From IMG/VR virus record IMGVR_UViG_2703719355_000001, positions 1 through 11,222 of that record: a stretch of 11,222 bases of DNA. One strand, written 5' to 3'. This document shows, piece after piece, positions 1 to 11,222 of the stretch (its first letter is position 1; every line of letters begins with the position of its first letter). This DNA is from a virus (Duplodnaviria > Heunggongvirae > Uroviricota > Caudoviricetes). The position numbers and the translations under genes are program-made. Below the pieces are notes generated by a model, which worked only from the letters and a program-made list of their open reading frames with translations, had not been told where the DNA came from and ran no database searches.

Positions 1-12
1 ATTTTTAGTCAT
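1..12 (-). CDS. 5' end (first 4 codons, MTKN...) of a gene that runs off the left edge of the window; by position a further ejection/injection protein of the late operon
   Basis: ATG at 10..12 (minus) preceded by a strong Shine-Dalgarno AAAGAGG (complement of about 20..27) with 7-nt spacing. Only 4 codons are visible, so the product is inferred from synteny alone. Confidence 0.3.
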
Positions 13-63
13 CCTGTTTACCTCTTTCTCAGGGAGTTTAGTCTCCAGGATTTCCGGGGCGGT

Positions 64-435
64 TCATGTGCCGATAGAATTACGCTGGTCTTCATCAATG
101 AATCCCATGCCTTTACGAACGGATTCAATCTGGTCTGGATATTGAGTAGCCAACTGACGCAAAGCACCGCGATCACCAGACGCATAAGCATTAGCGTATG
201 CCTGCTGAAATTCTTTCTGCCGCTGAGCCTGCTTTTCCTGCTGAAACACCCCCGCAATACCTGAAAGGCCTTGCAAAGCAGTCAGCCCAACATTGTTAGC
301 GCCTGAACGCTCAATATCATTGTTCTGCCTGATAAGCTGAAGCGTATTGCCGATGTCATTTACGCTCGGAGCGTTTGAGTTGACGCCGCCGATACCAGCC
401 AACAATCCGCCGTTTGTTCCTTGCCAAGTAGCCAT
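64..435 (-). CDS. 123-aa Gly/Gln/Asn/Ala-rich protein, putative ejection (injection) protein occupying the gene-20 position
   Basis: ORF-track ORF with ATG at 433..435, SD GGGGT 5 nt upstream, 10 nt after the gp7-like stop. Low-complexity composition resembles the adjacent gp7-like protein. Stop TGA at 64..66. Confidence 0.55.
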   Translation of the reverse strand: MATWQGTNGGLLAGIGGVNSNAPSVNDIGNTLQLIRQNNDIERSGANNVGLTALQGLSGIAGVFQQEKQAQRQKEFQQAYANAYASGDRGALRQLATQYPDQIESVRKGMGFIDEDQRNSIGT

Positions 436-444
436 GATTACCCC

Positions 445-1134
445 TTAAAACAACGAGCCAAGCAATCCGATACCAGCACCAATGCCAGCGCCCCAAGGCG
501 TTGATGTTCCCAAAAGGCTGGCAAGACCTGCACCGGCAATCGCACCAGACGTGCCACCGCTAATTGCAGTCTGAAGACTTGATGGTTTATTGGCATTAGC
601 AGCGGCAAGTGCTGCGCTTTGCTGTGCAATGCTGCTCATGTTGTTGGCGTATGTCTGCCCAGCGTTTGCCTGACCTTGCAGCGCACCAAGCCCAACGTTT
701 GCCAGATTGTTGTAATTGCTCATCTGGTTTGATAACCAAGACTGACCGAGTGTCGGCGCGATCGTAGCCAGTTGATTGCTTGTGGCTGTCGAACCAAGTC
801 CACCCGTCGCCTCCGCAGCAGCAAGACTCTGGTAACGCGCCTGACCTGCAAGGTCTTTATACTGCTGAGAGTTGTAATACTGATTAAGTGCCTGCCCCTG
901 ACCTTCTAAACTGGAAAGATTCTGCAACTGGTTAACATACTGCTCCGCAAGAGGCGTGAACGGAGCAAGGTTTTTCATGATCGTCTGCCACTGCTGATTT
1001 TGCAGGTCTGCTGCATACTTCTGAGCTTCTGCGGCATACTTTGCGCTTTTATCGGCTCCACCTTTCCCGCCTTTTTCAGGGCACCAAGGTTCCTCGCCGC
1101 GCAGTTTTCTGCCCAGCTTAAATGCATATAACAT
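445..1134 (-). CDS. 7: ejection (injection) protein, P22 gp7-like, 229 aa
   Basis: ATG at 1132..1134 with SD GGGAGA; stop TAA at 445..447. Length and position after the gp14-like gene match P22 gene 7. Low-complexity Q/N/A/G-rich body and a C-terminal Gly-rich hydrophobic tail (GAGIGAGIGLLGSLF). Symbol assigned by synteny. Confidence 0.75.
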   Translation of the reverse strand: MLYAFKLGRKLRGEEPWCPEKGGKGGADKSAKYAAEAQKYAADLQNQQWQTIMKNLAPFTPLAEQYVNQLQNLSSLEGQGQALNQYYNSQQYKDLAGQARYQSLAAAEATGGLGSTATSNQLATIAPTLGQSWLSNQMSNYNNLANVGLGALQGQANAGQTYANNMSSIAQQSAALAAANANKPSSLQTAISGGTSGAIAGAGLASLLGTSTPWGAGIGAGIGLLGSLF

Positions 1135-1136
1135 GG

Positions 1137-1592
1137 CTATCTCCCGTGATTCAGGAAGTCGATTAGTTCTTCGCGTGTTGCGCTGTAAAACGTCACGTCA
1201 TCCACGCCTTTGAAGTATTTCTTGATGGTTCCGACACGCTTAAGGCCAATCATTGCGCAGTACATCTGACCGTGGCGGAATTTACGTGCAGCAAATGATG
1301 TGACGCACTGAACGGTGGTGTTAGTCAGAATGTATCGCCAGAATGCCAGCCCGATTTCCTTGCTGAAGCCGCGAATCTCTGGCAGGTACATGGCGTGGCA
1401 ATCGAATGTCAGCGGCTGAATCTCCTGATAGTAAACAATGCCGCCAAACTGACCGTACACGTTCACCTCGAAGTAACGGCATTCAGGCTTGTAGTCGTAT
1501 CCATCACCGTTGTTGCTCCCGGCGATAATGTCGGGGTGATTTCCCACGGCTTCTATCAGGTCGATGTTTCGCGTTGGTTTGAATGTAATCAT
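1137..1592 (-). CDS. 14: head/tail assembly protein, P22 gp14-like, 151 aa
   Basis: ATG at 1590..1592 overlaps the stop of the upstream needle gene by 1 nt (TGATG); stop TAG at 1137..1139. Position between the needle and gp7-like genes as in P22. Symbol by synteny only. Confidence 0.65.
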   Translation of the reverse strand: MITFKPTRNIDLIEAVGNHPDIIAGSNNGDGYDYKPECRYFEVNVYGQFGGIVYYQEIQPLTFDCHAMYLPEIRGFSKEIGLAFWRYILTNTTVQCVTSFAARKFRHGQMYCAMIGLKRVGTIKKYFKGVDDVTFYSATREELIDFLNHGR

Positions 1593-2293
1593 CAGTCAAT
1601 CAGCCCATGTAATCTAAGTGCTGTTTCAAGCGCCAGAATACGCTGCCGCGCCTGCTGCAAACCTGTAGCGAGAGCCGAGACTTCGGATTGTGTGTACGTA
1701 GTGCCGACCGTGTATGACTGGTTAGCGTTGAATGTGCCAAGAAGTGGTGTGCCTGTGGCTGCAGTCCATCCGGTCTGCCTTGCTCCAACGACCTGAATTC
1801 CATCAACTGAATATGATGTTTTTACATCCAGCGGTGACGCAAGAGACTGCGATTCGGTTACGGTTTTCGATACGTAATCACTCTTAATGTCAGATACATC
1901 GCTTTCTACGCCATCCAGTCTTTGGTCAACAGTGACCAGATGCGCCTGAATATCGATAACCTCATCCAGCAAGTAATCAACATCGCTACGCAGTACGACT
2001 ATCTTCCCTTCGGCGGTTGTTAACCTGACCTCAAGGAGATTTATCGCTTTTGTGTTTGCGGTGATTCTTGCATCGTGGTCAGCCAGTTCGACATCCTGTT
2101 CATCGTTTTTCACCTGAGCATCGTAAGCGCCCTGTCCGGCCTCGTTGGCCTTGTTCGCCACGTTACCAACATCAGTGCCCTGTGCGATAACGTAAAGCAG
2201 ATATGACTGCGAGAAGATATTGCGTGGAAGGATTGATGTATCGAGCCGCGTCGCCTGAACAATAACAGGTGTATTGAGATTCGAATCAGCCAT
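1592..2293 (-). CDS. 26: tail needle protein (P22 gp26-like), 233 aa
   Basis: ATG at 2291..2293 overlaps the gp10-like stop (TAATG). Length equals P22 gp26. Central region has coiled-coil-like heptad character ([36 protein letters not shown]...), consistent with a trimeric needle. Confidence 0.8.
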
Positions 2294-3711
2294 TACTCAA
2301 TCCTTATCTGGCAGCCAGACAGAGTGACAGGTGACTTCGTGATAACACGCAATTTGAAGCCGACATTTTTCCTGATGCGCCCAACTCGCTTCCACAAAAC
2401 GCGTTTGTCGTAAACGAACGGTTCATTCTGCTCAATCATCTGCTCACGCCCGTAATTTATGCCGTCAGTGGTTGCAGAGAGGAACAGGCGGTCGGCGTAC
2501 TGAGCTACGCCAGTGGATGATTCCACCTCCAGATCGAAGCATCTGGCGTTATCCGCTTTGAACAGTGGAGTAAACAGAAGGTGTTCCTGTTGCTTGTCGT
2601 ACTGGCTGCTGATATCGAACTGCAATTTCCCGGTCACGGATTCCAGCTTATCGCCGCACGTTATCTGATTGCCTTCGTAAATGAAGTCGATAGCGCGGTA
2701 CACATCGTCATACAGACCTGTTTTCAACACACACCATTGCGGACCATTGGCGCTTGAAGATGCGTCGTACACGAGGACGTGACGCGTAAGATGGATAATC
2801 AGCAACTCATGAGCATCAAATCGCAGCGATTCCATCACACCATCAGCCAGTTCATCAGCAGTGTAGGAGCGGAGAATTTTCTCAATGCTCGCGCTGGCGA
2901 TTGGTGATACCTGACCGGAGCCGATGATGTATACAGACGGCGCACCTGTTGCCGGATTGCTGATGAACGCATAGGAATCAGCAAACGGCGTTTTACAGTA
3001 GGTTCCTGCAATACCTTTCTGCACCATCAGCGATGGCTGTGCAACATACAAAGCGGCACCAACGGTGGTTGCGCCAGTAAGGGAGAAATATTCAATAGTA
3101 GATGAACCAAAGCAGACGATGAAGTCTCGCCATGTACCTATGCCGATGATGCCGTCAGGCTGCGATTCTGCACGATATTGTGCGCTGTAGCGGTCAGGGT
3201 GCGATTCGTCTTCAAGGTCAGTGATAAACCATGAATCAGTACCGTCTTTTGACCACGCATAACGCCCACGTAAGCGCGTAATGTCGCGAACTGAACCTAA
3301 CTCATACTGCGTAAAACCGCTGTCTGTAGGCCAGTTTGAGACGGTTTTAACAGTGCCATCATAGCGATACTCGACCAGTTGACCATTAACACCTACCGCC
3401 TGTGATGTCCGACCATGCGCCATTGATACACGACCACTTCCGGCGACGTCACCGACTTCACTTTCTCCTTTGTACAGCTTGCCACCACACACGCGATAAA
3501 CAGCATTCTGCGCCATGTTGTACTCGACGCCTCGCGATACTCCGTTCACATCAGAACGTTTGGCAATGCCCGGGAATGAGCGAAGATATCCGCTGCTGTT
3601 CAGGATTTCTTTGGGTGTAGCCAACATATTCACTGGCAGATAGTCGATATAGTCGGCGTTTCGAAAGTCTTTGCCGACACCTTTCATAAGCGGAAGTTGC
3701 TGAATCGGCAT
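2293..3711 (-). CDS. 10: tail accessory factor / portal-neck hub protein (P22 gp10-like), 472 aa
   Basis: ATG at 3709..3711, 9 nt after the gp4-like stop; stop TAA at 2293..2295. Length equals P22 gp10 and the position is syntenic. Confidence 0.75.
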
Positions 3712-3720
3712 TTATTCACC

Positions 3721-4182
3721 TCACGTACTCGGATCATCTTTCTCGATGTAAAACCGATTCCACGTAAACGCGCTTTTGTTACCACTACCGCGAGGCATGT
3801 CATTTCGCCGCTCAAGTGGTGGTATTTTGGTTAAAGCGATACAGATTGTTTGATATGCACTGTCAGCAGCGGTAAGGAGAGCGTCTGACGGCTGAATGAC
3901 GTTATCCATGCACACTTGCACAGCGAGTTTCAAAGCGACGCCATCATTTGCCCATGCAGGGATACCTGAATCATCGTCAGGCAACGGCATGATGCCGTTT
4001 TCTGTATCAGCAAACTGATACCCAAGCTCGATACCTTTCGCCTGCCATGCTGCCATCATGTCTTCGAGGTCATTAATGGCATCTTCAATTGCCTGAGGGT
4101 CGGCATCTGTCAACGTGGCATTGGAATACAGCCCGGCTTTTCGTAAAGCCTTAAGAACGAGATCACCCTTCGTTTTCGCCAT
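3721..4182 (-). CDS. 4: head completion / tail adaptor protein (P22 gp4-like), 153 aa
   Basis: ATG at 4180..4182, stop TGA at 3721..3723. First gene after the coat and small ORF, as in P22-like phages. The next in-frame Met is at residue 42, so this start is the likely one. Confidence 0.75.
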   Translation of the reverse strand: MAKTKGDLVLKALRKAGLYSNATLTDADPQAIEDAINDLEDMMAAWQAKGIELGYQFADTENGIMPLPDDDSGIPAWANDGVALKLAVQVCMDNVIQPSDALLTAADSAYQTICIALTKIPPLERRNDMPRGSGNKSAFTWNRFYIEKDDPST

Positions 4183-4351
4183 CTTCTTCCGCCTTAGCCA
4201 CTTTATGCTTCGTTGCGGTTTCTTCAGGAGTTTTTACCCAGCCTTTTTTCAGGTGAGATTTAACTTCTTCGTCATCAACAATGATGTAATCGACAGCAAA
4301 CTGACCACAGGTGATCATGTTGCCAGGCTTATAGAGCATTGTTCGTGCCAT
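4163..4351 (-). CDS. hypothetical small protein (62 aa; MARTMLYKPGNMITCGQFAVDYIIVDDEEVKSHLKKGW..., acidic C-terminus)
   Basis: ATG at 4349..4351 with SD GGGAGAAG 6 nt upstream, immediately after the coat terminator. The ORF track's 75-aa version starts at a non-ATG codon and would read through the terminator hairpin, so I prefer the shorter form. Its 3' end overlaps the gp4-like start by 20 nt in another frame. Confidence 0.45.
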   Translation of the reverse strand: MARTMLYKPGNMITCGQFAVDYIIVDDEEVKSHLKKGWVKTPEETATKHKVAKAEEDGENEG

Positions 4352-4362
4352 TGTCTTCTCCC

Positions 4363-4388
4363 AATAAAAATGGGGCCGAAGCCCCACC
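4363..4388 (-). terminator. rho-independent terminator (probably partial) downstream of the coat gene
   Basis: On the minus-strand RNA, 6 nt after the coat TAA: UGGGGC-UUCG-GCCCCA (6-bp GC-rich stem, UUCG tetraloop; arms at 4381..4386 and 4371..4376) followed by UUUUUAUU (complement of 4363..4370). Confidence 0.7.
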
Positions 4389-4392
4389 AAAA

Positions 4393-5646
4393 TTACTGCC
4401 CGGCAATAACGATGCCCGTATATTCAGGAACAAGTACAGAGCAACCATACAGAGTGGTGAAACGAGCAGTGGTTACGCCTTTGATGTGGTCGAAGGCGTA
4501 AGACATGATCAGCGTAGCGCCCTGCTCGGTGGTTGCTGTCATTACCTGTGGACCCTGACCAGTCGGGAACGCCAGTTTGCCGTACATCAGCTCAACAGAA
4601 CCATCAGCCCAGAATAGGTTAGCCGGTGCGGCATTTTTGTTGAGAATGGTAATTGCTGCACCATTTGCCGCGTTAGCATCAACGTTTGCATATGGTCGGC
4701 TGGCGACATCCGCGTTGTCAGGCGGCAGAATTTTCGGGGAGATAGTTACTGTCGTTCCGCTTACTGCCAGAACGCGGAATACCTGCGGCTGCCCGGTGGT
4801 ATCTTTGGTGATCTGGTGTACAGAATTCACCCCTGCTATGGTAAACGCATCGCCAACCTGCAAACCTTCAGCAGATACCGTAATGGTCCCCTGTCGGTTA
4901 TCCACTGGCATATCGTTAGCATCTTTCGCTTCAACCTTGTGCGCAGGTGCTGCTGCCAGCGTAATGGAAGTTGCTGTACCCTTCGGAACACGACCAGAAA
5001 TATCGGTCTTGTAGCTATCGAAGGACGCAACCGGAGGGATTTGCGCTTTTTCGTATGCTGTCAGGGTTGCGCCCTGAGCATAGGCACGGTGACTAAGCTC
5101 GCCAGCAAGGTCTTTGTAGTTGAAGGGGTTCCAGAAAGAGCGACGGTTGATACCCTGAGGTACACCAATCGCCGTCATGGTGGCATCAATACCTGCCGCA
5201 CAGTTCCACAAATCACGGCCCTGTGAACCTGTGGTTGAGTCAGCCATCGTGATCACGTTAGTAGCACGCTGCGTAACCATGGAAATCAGGTCAGAGTCAA
5301 TCTGTGCAGCAAGGCGCATACCTGCGGCGCGACCAGCTTCAGTTTTATGTTCCGGGTCACGCATTTCACGCGCATCCAGAGTGTACAGAATGTTTTTCGG
5401 CTCCTTGAACACAGAAGGAACAAGGCGCTGAACCAGTGCTGTTGGCGTTTTGCCGCTGAGGTCTAGGCCTTCCTCAATGTTCATGTGGTAATGCTGCGGA
5501 CGATACAGAACATCACCTGCTCGCTGCATTGCTGTATCACCGGGACGGAATTTTTTAGCGTTACGGGAAACTACGCAGGCGGCCTCAAAGCCTTCAACGT
5601 AGTTTTCGAACATGATTTCAAGGTCTTTTGCTAATTGGTTAGCCAT
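4393..5646 (-). CDS. 5: major capsid (coat) protein, P22-like family, 417 aa
   Basis: ATG at 5644..5646 with SD GGAG; stop TAA at 4393..4395. Follows the scaffold gene. Shares remembered P22 coat motifs (KKFRPGDTAMQR vs KKYTPPAASMQR; NLFWADGSVEL vs NVFWADDAIRI) but is clearly divergent from P22 coat itself. Confidence 0.88.
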   Translation of the reverse strand: MANQLAKDLEIMFENYVEGFEAACVVSRNAKKFRPGDTAMQRAGDVLYRPQHYHMNIEEGLDLSGKTPTALVQRLVPSVFKEPKNILYTLDAREMRDPEHKTEAGRAAGMRLAAQIDSDLISMVTQRATNVITMADSTTGSQGRDLWNCAAGIDATMTAIGVPQGINRRSFWNPFNYKDLAGELSHRAYAQGATLTAYEKAQIPPVASFDSYKTDISGRVPKGTATSITLAAAPAHKVEAKDANDMPVDNRQGTITVSAEGLQVGDAFTIAGVNSVHQITKDTTGQPQVFRVLAVSGTTVTISPKILPPDNADVASRPYANVDANAANGAAITILNKNAAPANLFWADGSVELMYGKLAFPTGQGPQVMTATTEQGATLIMSYAFDHIKGVTTARFTTLYGCSVLVPEYTGIVIAGQ

Positions 5647-5664
5647 GCTTAATGCTCCGATAGG

Positions 5665-6558
5665 TTATTTTTTTGCCTTTTTGGCGGCGAAATACGGCGT
5701 CCAGTCACCAGTTTCCAGCGCCTTGGCTTTCAGTTTGTCGAGGTTATTGATTACTGCGCCGTTGCTCCCCTTAACTGTCGGGGTTGTGGCTGCCGTGGTT
5801 TTTGCTTTTGGCATGATTCTGGCCTTCGATTCGATACGTTCCAGCAGACGACCAATTGCTACGGGGTTGGTAGCTTCTGCCAGTTGCTTGCGCAGTTCAG
5901 CGTTGCGACCGAGTGCCAGAACAACGATCTCCGGCTTCTCTGACTCAAACAGGATCGCGTTTTGTGTCTCGATTGGGATTTCCTCGAGTACGGCCTGCTC
6001 AGCTTCCTGATAGCCAGGAACTTTGAGAGCCTTAACACGTTGCTGATATTTGGATAATCGCTCTTGATAGGCAGCCTGAAGCTCCTGCTCCTTCTGCTTG
6101 CGAGCCATCTCCTGTTGCTGGTACTTGCCGTTATCCTCTGCCCACTTAGCCATGCGTTGCTGGTAGATTTCTTCATCGAAACCGATGTCCTCATCATCCA
6201 GTTTTGGCATTCGCGGTGGTTGAGTGATTACCGGCTGCTGCTCGACGGGTTTCTGAGACTGACGCATCAGCTCTTTCAGCTCGCGGTCTTTCTCTTTAAT
6301 CGTCTTGCGCAGGTGTTTTACCAGTCCATGCTCTGCGCCATCTTCGCTGGTTGGCGAATCCAGCTTTTCGTCACCAAAGTAGAATTCCTGTTCTGATTCG
6401 TCGTCATCAGTTTCAGTAGCTTCCTCTGCATCATTGCCGGAGGACTCACTGCCATCTACTGTTTCGACTTCTTCAGCCAGTTCGACATCATCAGGAATCT
6501 GCTCTGACGCGTCGGTTTCGATTTCAACTTCTGGTGTGTTTTCTGCCATCTGGTCCAT
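5665..6558 (-). CDS. 8: scaffolding protein, 297 aa
   Basis: ATG at 6556..6558 with SD AGGGGT. Lies between portal and coat. Strongly acidic N-terminal region, central charged helical region (KELMRQ..., QQEMARKQKEQELQAAYQERLSKYQQ) and a basic C-terminal tail (LDKLKAKALETGDWTPYFAAKKAKK) typical of scaffold coat-binding ends. Confidence 0.75.
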   Translation of the reverse strand: MDQMAENTPEVEIETDASEQIPDDVELAEEVETVDGSESSGNDAEEATETDDDESEQEFYFGDEKLDSPTSEDGAEHGLVKHLRKTIKEKDRELKELMRQSQKPVEQQPVITQPPRMPKLDDEDIGFDEEIYQQRMAKWAEDNGKYQQQEMARKQKEQELQAAYQERLSKYQQRVKALKVPGYQEAEQAVLEEIPIETQNAILFESEKPEIVVLALGRNAELRKQLAEATNPVAIGRLLERIESKARIMPKAKTTAATTPTVKGSNGAVINNLDKLKAKALETGDWTPYFAAKKAKK

Positions 6559-6648
6559 TTGTTACCCCTGTTTACTCGATGTTCAGCCCATCGGAAGGCA
6601 ATAGGGTGCCAGGCCTCATAAAGACAGCCATTGCACGTTATGGGTTAA

Positions 6649-8853
6649 TTACTGCTGTGGTTGTTGCTGAGTTGATTTTTGCAGGATGCTGCTGATGTCC
6701 ATGCGCTGCGCATGGCCCTGTGCCTGACTTTTCAGGACAAGCTCTGCATCAGCACGGGCATTATCTCCTTGCTGTTGCTGGAACTGTCCGAGCAGTTTCA
6801 GAGCCTCGCGGATATCAGATTTCTGCTGACTATCGGCAGATGCGAGTATTTTCACAACATTTGCCGCTGCAACCTGAGCATCAGTCTGTGCCTGGAATGC
6901 TTTAACCTGAATGGCTGCCTGTTCGTTCTGCGCTTTCTGCAATTCAGCCTGGCCAGCAAGAAGCTGACCTTGCGCAGCAACCATAGCCGGATCTGGCTGA
7001 CTGGCCTGTTGTTGTTTCGCCTGCTCAACCATTTGCTGTTCTTCAGGCGTTCTCGGCTTGATAACGCCAGACAGAAGCAACTGATTGCGGTTGTATTCTT
7101 TCAGGTCGTCCATCCCTTCGCCGTCCATATTGTCGAGAATCATCGACGATACAAGGTCGTGCTTCGGCGTTCCTGGTGGGATAAGTGCCAGCATGGAAAG
7201 TAACGACTTAACCGTTGCATCACGGCGAGTAGCGAACGACTGACCGACATCGACAGTCACTTCATAGTTACCCTGCGAAAGGTCGTTAAGCGCGATAACC
7301 TGCCCTGTCTGACGGTCAACCACTTCACCAGTCATCAGCGCCACGTCATCGCTGTCGTCCTCATTCACGATACGCATCGGCGTATCACTGCCATAGACCT
7401 CACGCGCCATAGAAAGCCACACAACGCCAGCGCGACGCATGGATTTAGCCATGTTGTCCATGTAGATATAGGACTGCGTGTCCATCCGGTTAAAGATGCT
7501 ATCAACGGTATCGGTGGCGACGTTGCTCGGCATGTTCTCAAGCTGCGAAGCCCCGGTAATTTGCTGAATAGCCGTTCCGGTGTACTGCAATAACCCGGCA
7601 AGAGCAGGAGGCATTTGTGTCGGAGGTGTATAACTGCTGACCTGAGCCTGCGCAGTAATATCTCCGTTTTTGTTTTTCAGACTTACCATCGGCAGGAACG
7701 CCGGGCGCTTTTTGTTGCGCTCCGCCCAATGATTGGCGAGAGGACCAGGAATCATGTCAACATCAACTACAGGAATGCCATCACCGCCAGCCTGAGTAGC
7801 GTTATCTGCAATCATGGAAACCATCAGGTTCTCAAGACGCTGTGCATCCATCGCTTTTGCTGCGTGGCCTTCTATTCGCTCCTGATTATCAACAAATGAG
7901 CGACGCCCATATACCGGGATGAGAGGAATATGTTCGCCCGGAATACGCTTCGGTTCTTCCAGCCATTCAGCGCCAGACAGAAGACCGCAATAAACGCGGC
8001 GCTTCTTCACCGTTCGCTCGCCAATCAGTTCGAATGCACCATCGGTCAGCTCGTCGACAATATCTTTGATTTGCTCTTCATCATAGATTGCCGTTTCTCC
8101 GCTGACAGGATTGCGCCACGCCGTGAGCTTCACCTTCTCTATGCGAACTTCGTAGTAGCGTCCAACATAGATGGCATCAGGCGTTGACCAGTCATACTGA
8201 GTACCAGTGTCATCACGAGAAAGACTTGCCGCGATGGAGTCAGGGTATTCAGCCTCGAACGCTTTAGGCGTCATGGAGAACATTTCCATAGCCCACATAG
8301 CATCAGAGCGGTCATATTGCTTGCTGTCCTGATCGAAGAAGACGCATGTCGCTGGGTCGTAAACAGGAAGAAGGCTTATACGGCGCTGCTCGTTACTCGG
8401 ATCCATTTCATCTTCGTAATCGGCACACATGCGGAAACAACCGAATCCGCCCGTTACAGCATCATCAAATGCGTTATCACACGCTTCGCCACCGGATGTT
8501 TCCTGATAGTCAGCGCGGAATTTGCCGTTCATCTTTTCGGCTAACGCTTCCGATGCCTTATCGTCCTTCGGCCTGAATTTAACGCTGATGCGATTCTGTC
8601 GATACTCGCCAATGATGCGATCACATTCACGGGCAATCTTATTCAGCTCAAAGCGCGGGTAATGCTCAAACCTTCCTTCATCAAATGAGTAACCAGCGTT
8701 TGTGCTGCCTTCCCACTGTGCGCCGGATACCCGGACGAAACGTTGAGCCTCAATAATCTGCTCACGCATATCCTGCGTTGCTGACCAGGCATTATCAAAG
8801 TTGCACAGCACCTTGCGATGCCAGTCAGTCATCTTTCTATCATCAGCCATCAT
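6649..8853 (-). CDS. 1: portal protein (P22 gp1-like), about 734 aa from ATG 8851..8853
   Basis: The ORF track extends to a TTG at 8863..8865. The ATG at 8851..8853 has a GGAG SD and overlaps the terL TGA stop (ATGA arrangement), so I prefer it. Gln-rich C-terminal segment (...QQQQGDNARADAELVLKSQAQGHAQRMDISSILQKSTQQQPQQ) is typical of the P22-family portal barrel. Confidence 0.9.
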   Translation of the reverse strand: MMADDRKMTDWHRKVLCNFDNAWSATQDMREQIIEAQRFVRVSGAQWEGSTNAGYSFDEGRFEHYPRFELNKIARECDRIIGEYRQNRISVKFRPKDDKASEALAEKMNGKFRADYQETSGGEACDNAFDDAVTGGFGCFRMCADYEDEMDPSNEQRRISLLPVYDPATCVFFDQDSKQYDRSDAMWAMEMFSMTPKAFEAEYPDSIAASLSRDDTGTQYDWSTPDAIYVGRYYEVRIEKVKLTAWRNPVSGETAIYDEEQIKDIVDELTDGAFELIGERTVKKRRVYCGLLSGAEWLEEPKRIPGEHIPLIPVYGRRSFVDNQERIEGHAAKAMDAQRLENLMVSMIADNATQAGGDGIPVVDVDMIPGPLANHWAERNKKRPAFLPMVSLKNKNGDITAQAQVSSYTPPTQMPPALAGLLQYTGTAIQQITGASQLENMPSNVATDTVDSIFNRMDTQSYIYMDNMAKSMRRAGVVWLSMAREVYGSDTPMRIVNEDDSDDVALMTGEVVDRQTGQVIALNDLSQGNYEVTVDVGQSFATRRDATVKSLLSMLALIPPGTPKHDLVSSMILDNMDGEGMDDLKEYNRNQLLLSGVIKPRTPEEQQMVEQAKQQQASQPDPAMVAAQGQLLAGQAELQKAQNEQAAIQVKAFQAQTDAQVAAANVVKILASADSQQKSDIREALKLLGQFQQQQGDNARADAELVLKSQAQGHAQRMDISSILQKSTQQQPQQ

Positions 8854-10346
8854 CCAACTCCGCAAGGTATGTTGTAGCTTGAGTAATCAATCTCTTTAGG
8901 ATCTTTGATGTCTCGCATCTGTATTGCAAAACGCCTCATCATGTAGCCATAGCGAACAGCAGAAAGGATGTCGTCATTTAGCTTGACGATCCTCCCGTTC
9001 TCATCGCGGTGATACAGGCGAAACTCTTCAAAGAATGGCTCGCAGGTGTTAAATACCTTGAAACGACCGTCGAGCATCATGTCGCGTATCTCTGCTATCC
9101 CGGGTTCGACCGCATTACCTCCATCAGGCCATGTTGCATGATCTGGCAACATGTCGAACCCAGCGTCGGCGTATTGTTCCTTGAGCTGAGCGCCGCCTCC
9201 CTTTTCGTGCTGATGCCCGTCATGAGGCCAAGCCGTAGGGGTGTTTTTGCTCCATGCTTTAACAGCACTCCATGCCTCTGTCGCCTTCTTCTGTTTGGCC
9301 TTCCAGACGCGAGAAAGATAAATCACGTCCTCGTCTTTATCCCACCAAAGCTGGATATGTGCCTGTGGGTGATCCCATCCGAAGTCCATTGCATTGATGA
9401 CGTAGAAGTGATCAGGACACTCGAACGGCTGACACTTAATCGTCTCTTCCGGTATCTGGAAGATTCGACCGCTACCCATCGTTGGAATACCGCGAGCACG
9501 CGCCTCTCTCTCATGCTCAGGATAGGATGCGATGATTTGCTCTTTCTGCTCGTCGGTGTAGTGCTCTGCGTCATAGATGGTCATGTTGACCACTTTCTGC
9601 GACTTGCTGGGATTCTTCAGGAACTTGGTAACAACGTCAGACATCCCCATCAGCGGGGTAAACGTCAGAATTGAGAATTGCCCGTATTTGTTGGTACGGG
9701 TAAGACCTTCGCCATAAATGCTGTATGGTGGCTCTTCGTCAAACCACACGCCGTGGATTGTGTCACCCTGCCAGCGAGCACGGCCCTGCGAGTATGGCTT
9801 GAAGTAGCAGATTGAAATGCCATCTTCAACGCCATCAGCCGTGTGATGCTTAACCAGAAGATGATCAACAAGGTTCGGAAAGAAAGGAGACTTCTTCCAG
9901 CTAATGATGTCTTCTTTCGGTATGGAACCGTAGCCAGGCTCATCATTCTCTTCGATACGACCGCACAGGATGCGTTGAGTCGTTTTGGTTACAGTCTCGT
10001 TTGTCTCGCCACCAATCCAGAAGACAACAGGCTCATAGAAACGCTTACCTTTCCACTCACCGCCATATTTACCATCAGCAGGATAGCCTTTTGTGCCCGG
10101 ATAACGCCCGGTAAGGTGAAACGCGACTTCAGCAGCACCAGTAAATGACTTACCAAGCTGGTTGCCAGCCATAAAACATCGCTCTGGATAGTCATGCCCG
10201 GCGTCGATGAACTCACGCTGTTTGCTGTATGGCGTAAATTCATATAGCAGGTGTGTGTTCCGGTAGTTCTCTTCTTCTTCGAGTAGCTCGAGCAACTCGA
10301 TTTGCTCTTCGTCGCTCAGGTTATCAAGAATCGCGTCCAGTTCCAC
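8850..10346 (-). CDS. 2: terminase large subunit (TerL), 498 aa
   Basis: GTG start at 10344..10346 with strong SD AAGGAG 8 nt upstream; no in-frame ATG near the N-terminus. Deviant Walker A GNQLGKS (residues 61-67, nt 10146..10166), Walker B-like VWFDEEP, and a C-terminal nuclease-type region. Overlaps the terS 3' end by 23 nt. Confidence 0.9.
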
Positions 10347-10812
10347 GGTTGAATAGCTCCTTGATACGAGAGCGTCGCTTATCGCGATCTCCCTTATCAG
10401 GTGTCACGTCTTCAACTTGCGACTGCTCTTTGAGGCCCAAATCACGGGCGATGATGTTAGCGTTGAGAAGGTCAGCGGCTGCGCCAGAGAATTTCTGGTC
10501 GTAGATGACCTGCTCTGCTCGCGTAACGACTTCAGATAAATCTTCTCGCAGGCGATATGTGCGCCATGTTTCAAGCGTCACATCAATGAACAGAGTGAGG
10601 CCTGTAATGGTCATCGCTCGCATCTTGGCGATAGGTTCTTGTATCACTTCACCCTGATACGAGAACGCCTTCATCTCCCATAGCGGGTTAGCTTCTACCC
10701 ACTCGAAGTATTCACAACAAGCAGCCCACAGCGCCTCAGGCGATTCGAATTTAGGATTTCGCCCATGACTACTGCGGGCCTCCCAAAATCGGTTGCCCTT
10801 TGGTGCTGCCAT
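10324..10812 (-). CDS. 3: terminase small subunit (TerS, P22 gp3-type), 162 aa
   Basis: ATG at 10810..10812 with SD AAGGG. Contains the 22-bp pac sequence, which encodes the REDLSEVVT segment. Length equals P22 gp3. Confidence 0.9.
10524..10545 (-). promoter_or_regulatory. pac: pac site (headful packaging initiation), P22-type
   Basis: Minus-strand sequence GAAGATTTATCTGAAGTCGTTA (plus strand TAACGACTTCAGATAAATCTTC at 10524..10545) matches exactly the 22-bp P22 pac sequence as I recall it, and sits inside terS as in P22. Confidence 0.75.
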
Positions 10813-10817
10813 ATTGA

Positions 10818-10889
10818 TTATTTCCCTTCTGCTTGCTTATCCCATTCATCGCGGAATTTGGATGGGTTGTCGAAACCTTGAGTTGCCAT
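10818..10889 (-). CDS. possible 23-aa micro-ORF ([23 protein letters not shown]) immediately upstream of terS
   Basis: ATG at 10887..10889 with SD GGAG 7 nt upstream; stop TAA at 10818..10820, 5 nt before the terS ATG. The terS SD lies inside its 3' end. Too short to support beyond signal placement. Confidence 0.25.
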
Positions 10890-10891
10890 GT

Positions 10892-11134
10892 TTATGCTCC
10901 GGTGGTGAACAGGTCTAACGCTTCCTTCGATTTACGCACCGCTTCGATAGTGCGGGTCGTGATATCTGAATTAGCGCCGCCTGACTGGAAGTGAATTTTG
11001 AATAGCTCAAGCTTCAGTTCGTCAGTGCCAATGAACTAAAATGCTTCCTCTGCGGCTGCGTTCTGGTTCATGACCAGCTTGTAAATCTCTAACTGGAATT
11101 TCTGTTCTTCAGTCATGGGAATAATCTCTGCCAT
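10892..11134 (-). pseudogene. 78-codon reading frame with a good start, interrupted by a single in-frame TAG (32 aa + amber + 45 codons); candidate nonsense-disrupted late gene
   Basis: ATG at 11132..11134 with SD GGAG 6 nt upstream, 12 nt after the stop of the upstream gene. Translation: MAEIIPMTEEQKFQLEIYKLVMNQNAAAEEAF, TAG at 11036..11038, then FIGTDELKLELFKIHFQSGGANSDITTRTIEAVRKSKEALDLFTTGA, TAA at 10892..10894. The second segment has no ATG. Confidence 0.3.
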
Positions 11135-11146
11135 TGTTGGCTCCGT

Positions 11147-11222
11147 TTATCCGTTAAAAGGGATATCAGTTAAGTTATCCCGTGTAGGGTATAAGCCATT
11201 GTCGAGACCACTCATTGAATGG
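11147..11222 (-). CDS. 3' end (C-terminal about 25 codons, ...HSMSGLDNGLYPTRDNLTDIPFNG) of an upstream late-region gene entering from the right edge
   Basis: Open frame on the minus strand from the window edge to TAA at 11147..11149, 12 nt before the next SD/ATG. Identity unknown; by position possibly a lysis-cassette or accessory gene. Confidence 0.35.
   Translation of the reverse strand, partial: HSMSGLDNGLYPTRDNLTDIPFNG

Follow-up and report, generated by a model that had tools for sequence, protein, structure and literature searches.

The gene considered here has been described under several names in P22-like phages. hkbM of HK620 and CUS-3, gene 67 of Sf6, gene 69 of epsilon34 and the P22 ORF located upstream of gene 3 are the same gene as the copy analyzed here, with 96–99.7% nucleotide identity to it, and correspond to the Pfam family DUF2560 (PF10834). 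A 243-nt CDS is annotated at the same place in CUS-3 and HK620 (hkbM in both) and in EC.P3. Uninterrupted CDSs are also present in the E. coli prophages of GPEC60-33-648 and UMNF18 and in Salmonella phage epsilon34 (gene 69), and tblastn detected an uninterrupted product that is 98.8% identical near the right end of the P22 record. The matching PHROG (571) is labelled "unknown function", and nothing relevant to "DUF2560" or "hkbM" was found in the searchable literature.

Shortened relatives occur in the lambda-like phages HK75, HK446, mEp235, mEp506 and mEpX1 (PHROG 23132), in which just the first ~27–28 residues of DUF2560 are retained. These remnants form a 45-aa ORF and represent recombination scars fused to unrelated sequence. 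As viable lambdoid phages of this kind carry no more than a remnant, DUF2560 is not essential in general. An N-terminal DUF2560 remnant likewise fused to unrelated sequence was observed in five IMG/VR loci (L106, L112, L118, L121 and L122).

We analyzed a stretch of 11,222 nt from IMG/VR record IMGVR_UViG_2703719355_000001 (positions 1 to 11,222; hereafter, the window). All of its genes are on the minus strand and correspond to the late/structural operon of a P22-like phage. The following features were assigned:

11141..11144, minus strand: Shine-Dalgarno GGAG, 6 nt 5' of the ATG (read from the sequence)
10892..11134, minus strand: DUF2560 pseudogene (hkbM / Sf6 gene 67 / P22 80-codon ORF), assigned from its translation, Pfam PF10834 and the uninterrupted 243-nt CDS in relatives
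11134..11132, minus strand: start ATG (read from the sequence)
11036..11134, minus strand: residual ORF of 32 codons plus TAG (its 32-aa product is recorded, as an exact match, for 67 contigs)
11036..11038, minus strand: premature stop TAG, codon 33 (alignment and codon-by-codon comparison; CAG, Gln, in close relatives)
10895..11035, minus strand: 47-codon remainder after the TAG (Pfam profile positions 30–72, E=1.9e-23)
10894..10892, minus strand: terminal TAA (translation)
10818..10889, minus strand: mini-ORF of 23 codons between DUF2560 and terS, at a mosaic junction (reading frame)
10324..10812, minus strand: terS, P22 gp3-type small terminase, 162 aa, intact ("terminase small subunit" or "DNA-packaging protein" in relatives)
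10346..8850, minus strand: terL (P22-like operon)
67..435, minus strand: gene-20-type DNA ejection protein, cut after residue 122 of 488 (488-aa UMNF18 orthologue)
1..66, minus strand: left end of an IS1203/IS629-type IS3-family element (TGAACCGCCCCGGAAATCC... then ATGACTAAAAAT, orfA start)

The DUF2560 frame lies after the lysis/accessory genes and before the terminase region of the late operon, the same position that the gene has in CUS-3, EC.P3, HK620, epsilon34, UMNF18 and ten further prophages. It consists of 80 codons plus TAA (243 nt) and is broken by the TAG at codon 33, so that no uninterrupted ORF of ~80 codons is present. The original prediction had located the frame, its ATG, the GGAG and a TAG at 11036..11038 after 32 sense codons, and these coordinates are correct on the minus strand. 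Its codon counts need correction, as the frame has 80 codons plus the stop rather than 78, and 47 rather than 45 open codons follow the TAG. It had also described this remainder as lacking an ATG, and translation agrees: the 47 codons contain no in-frame ATG or TTG, and a start at their sole GTG, codon 66, would give a product of just 15 residues. Internal re-initiation within this tail was rejected, as no start would yield more than ~15 aa. Judged from the sequence, the 32-codon residual ORF is the sole part of DUF2560 expected to be translated.

Megablast of the region matched 160 phage records. Codon 33 was CAG or CAA (Gln) in every intact relative examined (CUS-3, EC.P3, HK620, GPEC60 and UMNF18, with CAA in epsilon34), and these orthologues, with a sense codon at the site, were otherwise collinear with the window gene. 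The change in the window, relative to its close relatives, is C>T at gene position 97. It is the single difference from CUS-3 over 338 nt and the single difference from GPEC60 over the gene, and the 47-codon remainder is identical to the matching part of both intact genes. The window differed from EC.P3 and from UMNF18 at 6 further sites each, all synonymous, and from HK620 by 8 synonymous changes and a TAA/TGA change of the stop codon. With the differences among relatives otherwise synonymous, the intact gene must be under purifying selection, and since the remainder shows no further change compared with intact relatives, the stop at codon 33 must be recent. Read with Gln at codon 33, the window product is 80 aa long and identical to that of hkbM of HK620 and CUS-3; the Shine-Dalgarno sequence, the ATG and the site directly upstream of the terminase region are also the same. 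However, the window has TAG instead of CAG at this codon, and only 32 residues are possible. It differs from the lambda-like remnants in that it carries a point nonsense mutation with the rest of the gene present. In the wider family (28 sequences, down to ~61% identity), residue 33 was Q, A, S or G, whereas A31, F32, F34, I35 and G36 were invariant or nearly so.

The comparison with homologues suggested in the original prediction revealed P22-like phages with uninterrupted 80-aa proteins and Gln (CAG/CAA) at the position of the stop, and its proposal of a nonsense-inactivated accessory gene is supported by these intact relatives. It had also considered that two unrelated short frames might adjoin by chance. 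A short open frame is indeed unremarkable (by our own estimate, 47 codons alone would be open in roughly 10% of cases), but the two halves correspond to adjacent stretches of a single Pfam profile. The Gln-restored product matched PF10834 with 147.7 bits (profile positions 1–72), the 32-aa head alone with 50.5 bits (E=2.5e-13, positions 1–28) and the 47-aa tail alone with 82.9 bits (E=1.9e-23, positions 30–72), each above the gathering score of 25 bits. The TAG of codon 33 falls on profile position 29. Because head and tail match adjoining parts of a single profile, they are halves of one gene. By its sequence, the window copy is a pseudogene of the DUF2560 family and not a functional member. 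Overall, we consider it very probable that this locus is a dispensable accessory gene turned into a nonsense pseudogene by ordinary prophage decay.

The identical allele was found in the chromosome of E. coli Z1323CEC0019 (NZ_CP148401.1), a chicken isolate from Korea, with 100% identity over 751 nt. The corresponding locus, WHU41_RS09920, carries the RefSeq/PGAP label "DUF2560 family protein, pseudogene, internal stop". This strain has the same prophage lineage as the window and also contains an IS1203 element; window positions 1..66 are 98.5% identical to both of its IS1203 copies. The shared 751 nt comprise the upstream region, DUF2560 and the first 342 nt of terS. In Z1323CEC0019 (positions 12001..14060 of the extracted locus, L004), the IS end abuts terS at nt 342 and is followed by a tailspike fragment, and everything from mid-terS to the tailspike is gone, including ~10 kb of structural genes that the window has. 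In contrast, terS through gene 7 are intact in the window (terL is followed by portal, scaffold, coat, gp4-, gp10-, gp26-, gp14- and gp7-like genes and a gene-20-like start), and the IS end lies in gene 20. The arrangement suggests that the structural genes of Z1323CEC0019 were lost by an IS-mediated deletion, and its prophage looks like a further-deleted derivative of the lineage represented by the window. As the IS1203-like end cuts gene 20, the window prophage is itself defective and would form no infectious particles. No tRNA gene was detected in the window, and the tRNAs present in 24 kb of the Z1323CEC0019 prophage region were limited to those for Asn, Thr and Arg. Rfam searches of the window and of the neighboring regions of its relatives revealed no RNA family except IS3 frameshift pseudoknots and the tRNAs in Z1323CEC0019. 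A second IMG/VR contig, UViG_2693429524_000017, matched the window with 100% identity over 1260 nt and probably derives from the same source genome. The best full-length matches to the window were 96.4% among complete E. coli RefSeq genomes and 94.6% among phage records.

We further examined how often such alleles occur. The exact 32-aa product was present on 67 contigs (NCBI, JGI, ENA and Logan), whereas the two commonest intact 80-aa sequences were each on at least 1000 contigs, and the window gene showed no divergence from CUS-3 and GPEC60 past the stop; the allele is thus rare and shallow, as in a nonsense pseudogene. Loci from ten of the 67 contigs were listed (L009–L018). Codon 33 was TAG in seven and TAA in three of them, the stops were on at least 8 synonymous-site haplotypes, and the TAA alleles had backgrounds resembling the epsilon34 CAA haplotype. 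The presence of TAG and TAA on several haplotypes shows that C>T at codon 33 arose more than once. These ten loci are different P22-like mosaics that otherwise look intact, with CUS-3-, P22- or Sf6-type terS, portals of 696–733 aa and differing upstream genes; one of them (L016) has a second stop at codon 39. In an anchor-based sample of IMG/VR, 120 loci yielded 103 genes, none of which was interrupted (0/103); of the remaining 17 loci, 5 were cut by contig ends, and in 12 the anchor was followed by an N-terminal remnant or by a different gene. When IMG/VR was scanned with a degenerate pattern, TAR at codon 33 was found only in the window's own probable source contig. The exact 61-mer of the stop haplotype was found in 1 of 422 complete E. 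coli genomes, a figure that underestimates stop alleles on other haplotypes. Exact-pattern scans of species-representative genomes and of metagenome contigs did not find the TAG allele, although such collections say little in this respect.

Truncated products ending at other codons were on record in comparable numbers, so that codon 33 does not stand out: 38 aa on 37 contigs, 42 aa on 16, 49 aa on 8, 50 aa on 42, 55 aa on 32 and 63 aa on 21. These look-ups covered codons one substitution away from a stop, and some of the products are contig-end partials. Frameshifted and IS-fused DUF2560 alleles were recorded as well. Disrupted copies amount to less than about 3%. Sporadic loss of function in a dispensable prophage gene, across very many genomes, would give this pattern of alleles. 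A mutational hotspot at codon 33, at which the recurrence on at least 8 haplotypes could hint, was considered separately and was not supported, as the mutated C is not in a Dcm site (CCWGG) and truncation counts at other codons were within about twofold. One disrupted allele (protein P0089) ends with "...FIVNRPGNPGD", which is the translated IS1203-type terminal repeat (TGAACCGCCCCGG...); from this tail, an IS was inserted at DUF2560 codon 36 in another genome.

It is possible, though we consider it unlikely, that the stop reflects recurrent selection rather than decay. DUF2560 might be costly in some hosts, for example by being toxic when leaky or by triggering host defence, so that nonsense mutations would be positively selected. 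The recurrence described above is what such a process could produce: the codon-33 stop arose at least twice (TAG on CAG and TAA on CAA) on at least 8 haplotypes in intact-looking P22-like mosaics, many other disrupted alleles exist, and 32 aa is the commonest truncation length among those looked up (67 contigs versus 8 for the equivalent C>T at Gln50). However, contig counts are not independent events and are inflated by clonal sampling, and with about a million sequenced enterobacterial genomes, repeated C>T nonsense is expected at any site. Furthermore, disrupted alleles are rare (0/103 in the unbiased IMG/VR sample, and 67 contigs versus at least 1000), and substitutions in intact genes are all synonymous. 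There is accordingly only a small chance that the codon-33 stop is one of a set of independently selected DUF2560 knock-outs affecting the same C, in a 5'-TC context, in many prophage backgrounds. If this were true, such alleles would point to DUF2560 as a toxic late protein or as a trigger of defence.

The remaining alternatives are far less probable. Readthrough of the TAG by a suppressor tRNA or by programmed recoding, with the full-length protein still made, is a highly improbable explanation even though the downstream 47 codons are open and unchanged. A supE-type amber suppressor inserts glutamine and would therefore restore the wild-type residue; yet the window lacks tRNA genes, the 24-kb prophage region of Z1323CEC0019 contains no suppressor, codon 33 is TAA in other lineages, where an amber suppressor could not read it, and L016 carries its second stop at codon 39. 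The stop was absent from all 103 sampled homologues and is thus not conserved, and PGAP called the allele a pseudogene. In addition, the TAG is followed by U, and in E. coli termination is efficient at UAGU. Codon 33 thus failed every feature of programmed recoding that was tested. A sequencing or assembly error with C as the true base, which a single-base difference from CUS-3 and GPEC60 might suggest, has an even lower probability: the same allele occurs in the independent and structurally different complete genome of Z1323CEC0019, where terS is cut by an IS, and the identical 32-aa product is found on 67 contigs from NCBI, JGI, ENA and Logan. UViG_2693429524_000017, probably from the same source as the window, carries it too. 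The original prediction had also raised a laboratory amber allele, which here would derive from a phage stock. A CAG>TAG change is of the type classically obtained with hydroxylamine, and databases do contain laboratory amber strains of P22-like phages, e.g., phage L cI-40 13-am43. We nevertheless assign this origin the least probability of all. Such an allele would come from a mutagenised stock and typically affect an essential gene, whereas the window represents a chromosomal prophage of E. coli type that carries an IS1203-like insertion and whose nearest relative is found in a chicken isolate from Korea; the same allele occurs in chromosomal prophages of natural E. coli isolates, and other lineages have TAA. 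The allele was in no phage record (the best phage matches were at most 98.3% over the whole query, and CUS-3 has CAG), and a mutation in a non-essential gene would presumably be missed by conditional-lethal screens.

Returning to ordinary decay, the available data are consistent with the following model. The locus is a DUF2560 accessory gene that lies between terS and the lysis/accessory region in the late operon of an E. coli prophage of the P22-like (Lederbergvirus) type, and a single C>T transition has converted its Gln codon 33 (CAG) to TAG. Translation initiated at the conserved GGAG/ATG would end after 32 residues and leave the 47-codon remainder unread, and a small four-helix protein would be lost. 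The AlphaFold model of the intact product has four helices (residues 9–20, 25–35, 39–51 and 58–78; pLDDT 84, pTM 0.71). According to this model, truncation would remove the last three residues of helix 2 and the whole of helices 3 and 4, and the fold could not form. No sequence relative of the product was found in PDB, and the model had no significant match among PDB folds. The sole BFVD match below E=0.001 (5e-4) was an uncharacterised protein, and weaker listed matches offered no functional lead. The mutation is probably tolerated because the gene is dispensable for the lysogen, as the allele distribution suggests, and also because a prophage with an IS-cut gene 20 would make no infectious particles anyway. 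Any effect on downstream translation is likely small, and is irrelevant here because the prophage makes no infectious particles. Thus, the stop in the window is one of many sporadic knock-out alleles of DUF2560 in enterobacterial prophages, and the loss of function would be without consequence for the host.

As such, the locus is a pseudogene belonging to a known family, and RefSeq already annotates the identical allele accordingly. The finding matters little beyond being a genuine point-nonsense pseudogene that can be verified by comparison with relatives. Its value is mainly for annotation: the appropriate label is "DUF2560 family protein, pseudogene (internal stop)", and the prophage should be treated as defective. 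Intact DUF2560 is strongly conserved, with only synonymous changes, and natural knock-outs in otherwise intact prophages (such as those in GCA_021650385.1 and GCA_008326605.1) could provide material for testing its role.

The flanks of the gene were less compact than had been predicted. The ATG had been described as lying 12 nt after an upstream stop; an in-frame TAA does occur there, but it is in non-coding sequence, and tight packing on the 5' side of DUF2560 was not borne out, as the preceding gene in annotated relatives ends ~230–360 nt upstream. On the 3' side, the ATG 2 nt past the stop (10889) is not the start of terS but opens the 23-codon mini-ORF; terS starts at 10812, 5 nt past the end of the mini-ORF. 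This mini-ORF had no PHROG match, is unannotated in EC.P3 and UMNF18, and is probably a recombination scar. Its ATG is within the conserved junction TAAACATGGC, and in CUS-3 that ATG starts terS. Farther upstream, a perfect 7-bp inverted repeat, GAGACCA-N9-TGGTCTC, is present at 11204..11222, ~70–90 nt upstream of the DUF2560 ATG; the window ends within its 5' arm, and the whole repeat is present in L004. It is not followed by a T-run and is therefore not a terminator. The repeat lies in an invariant block: across 100 IMG/VR loci, ~85 nt upstream of the gene together with its 5' end (11135..11222 and 11075..11134) were 99–100% invariant, the GGAG of DUF2560 being inside this block, whereas the rest of the gene was less conserved (90–97%). 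Positions -21 to +5 belonged to the anchor with which these loci had been retrieved. Homology between phages ends directly after the DUF2560 stop codon, and the 5' block behaves as a conserved linker at a mosaic boundary.
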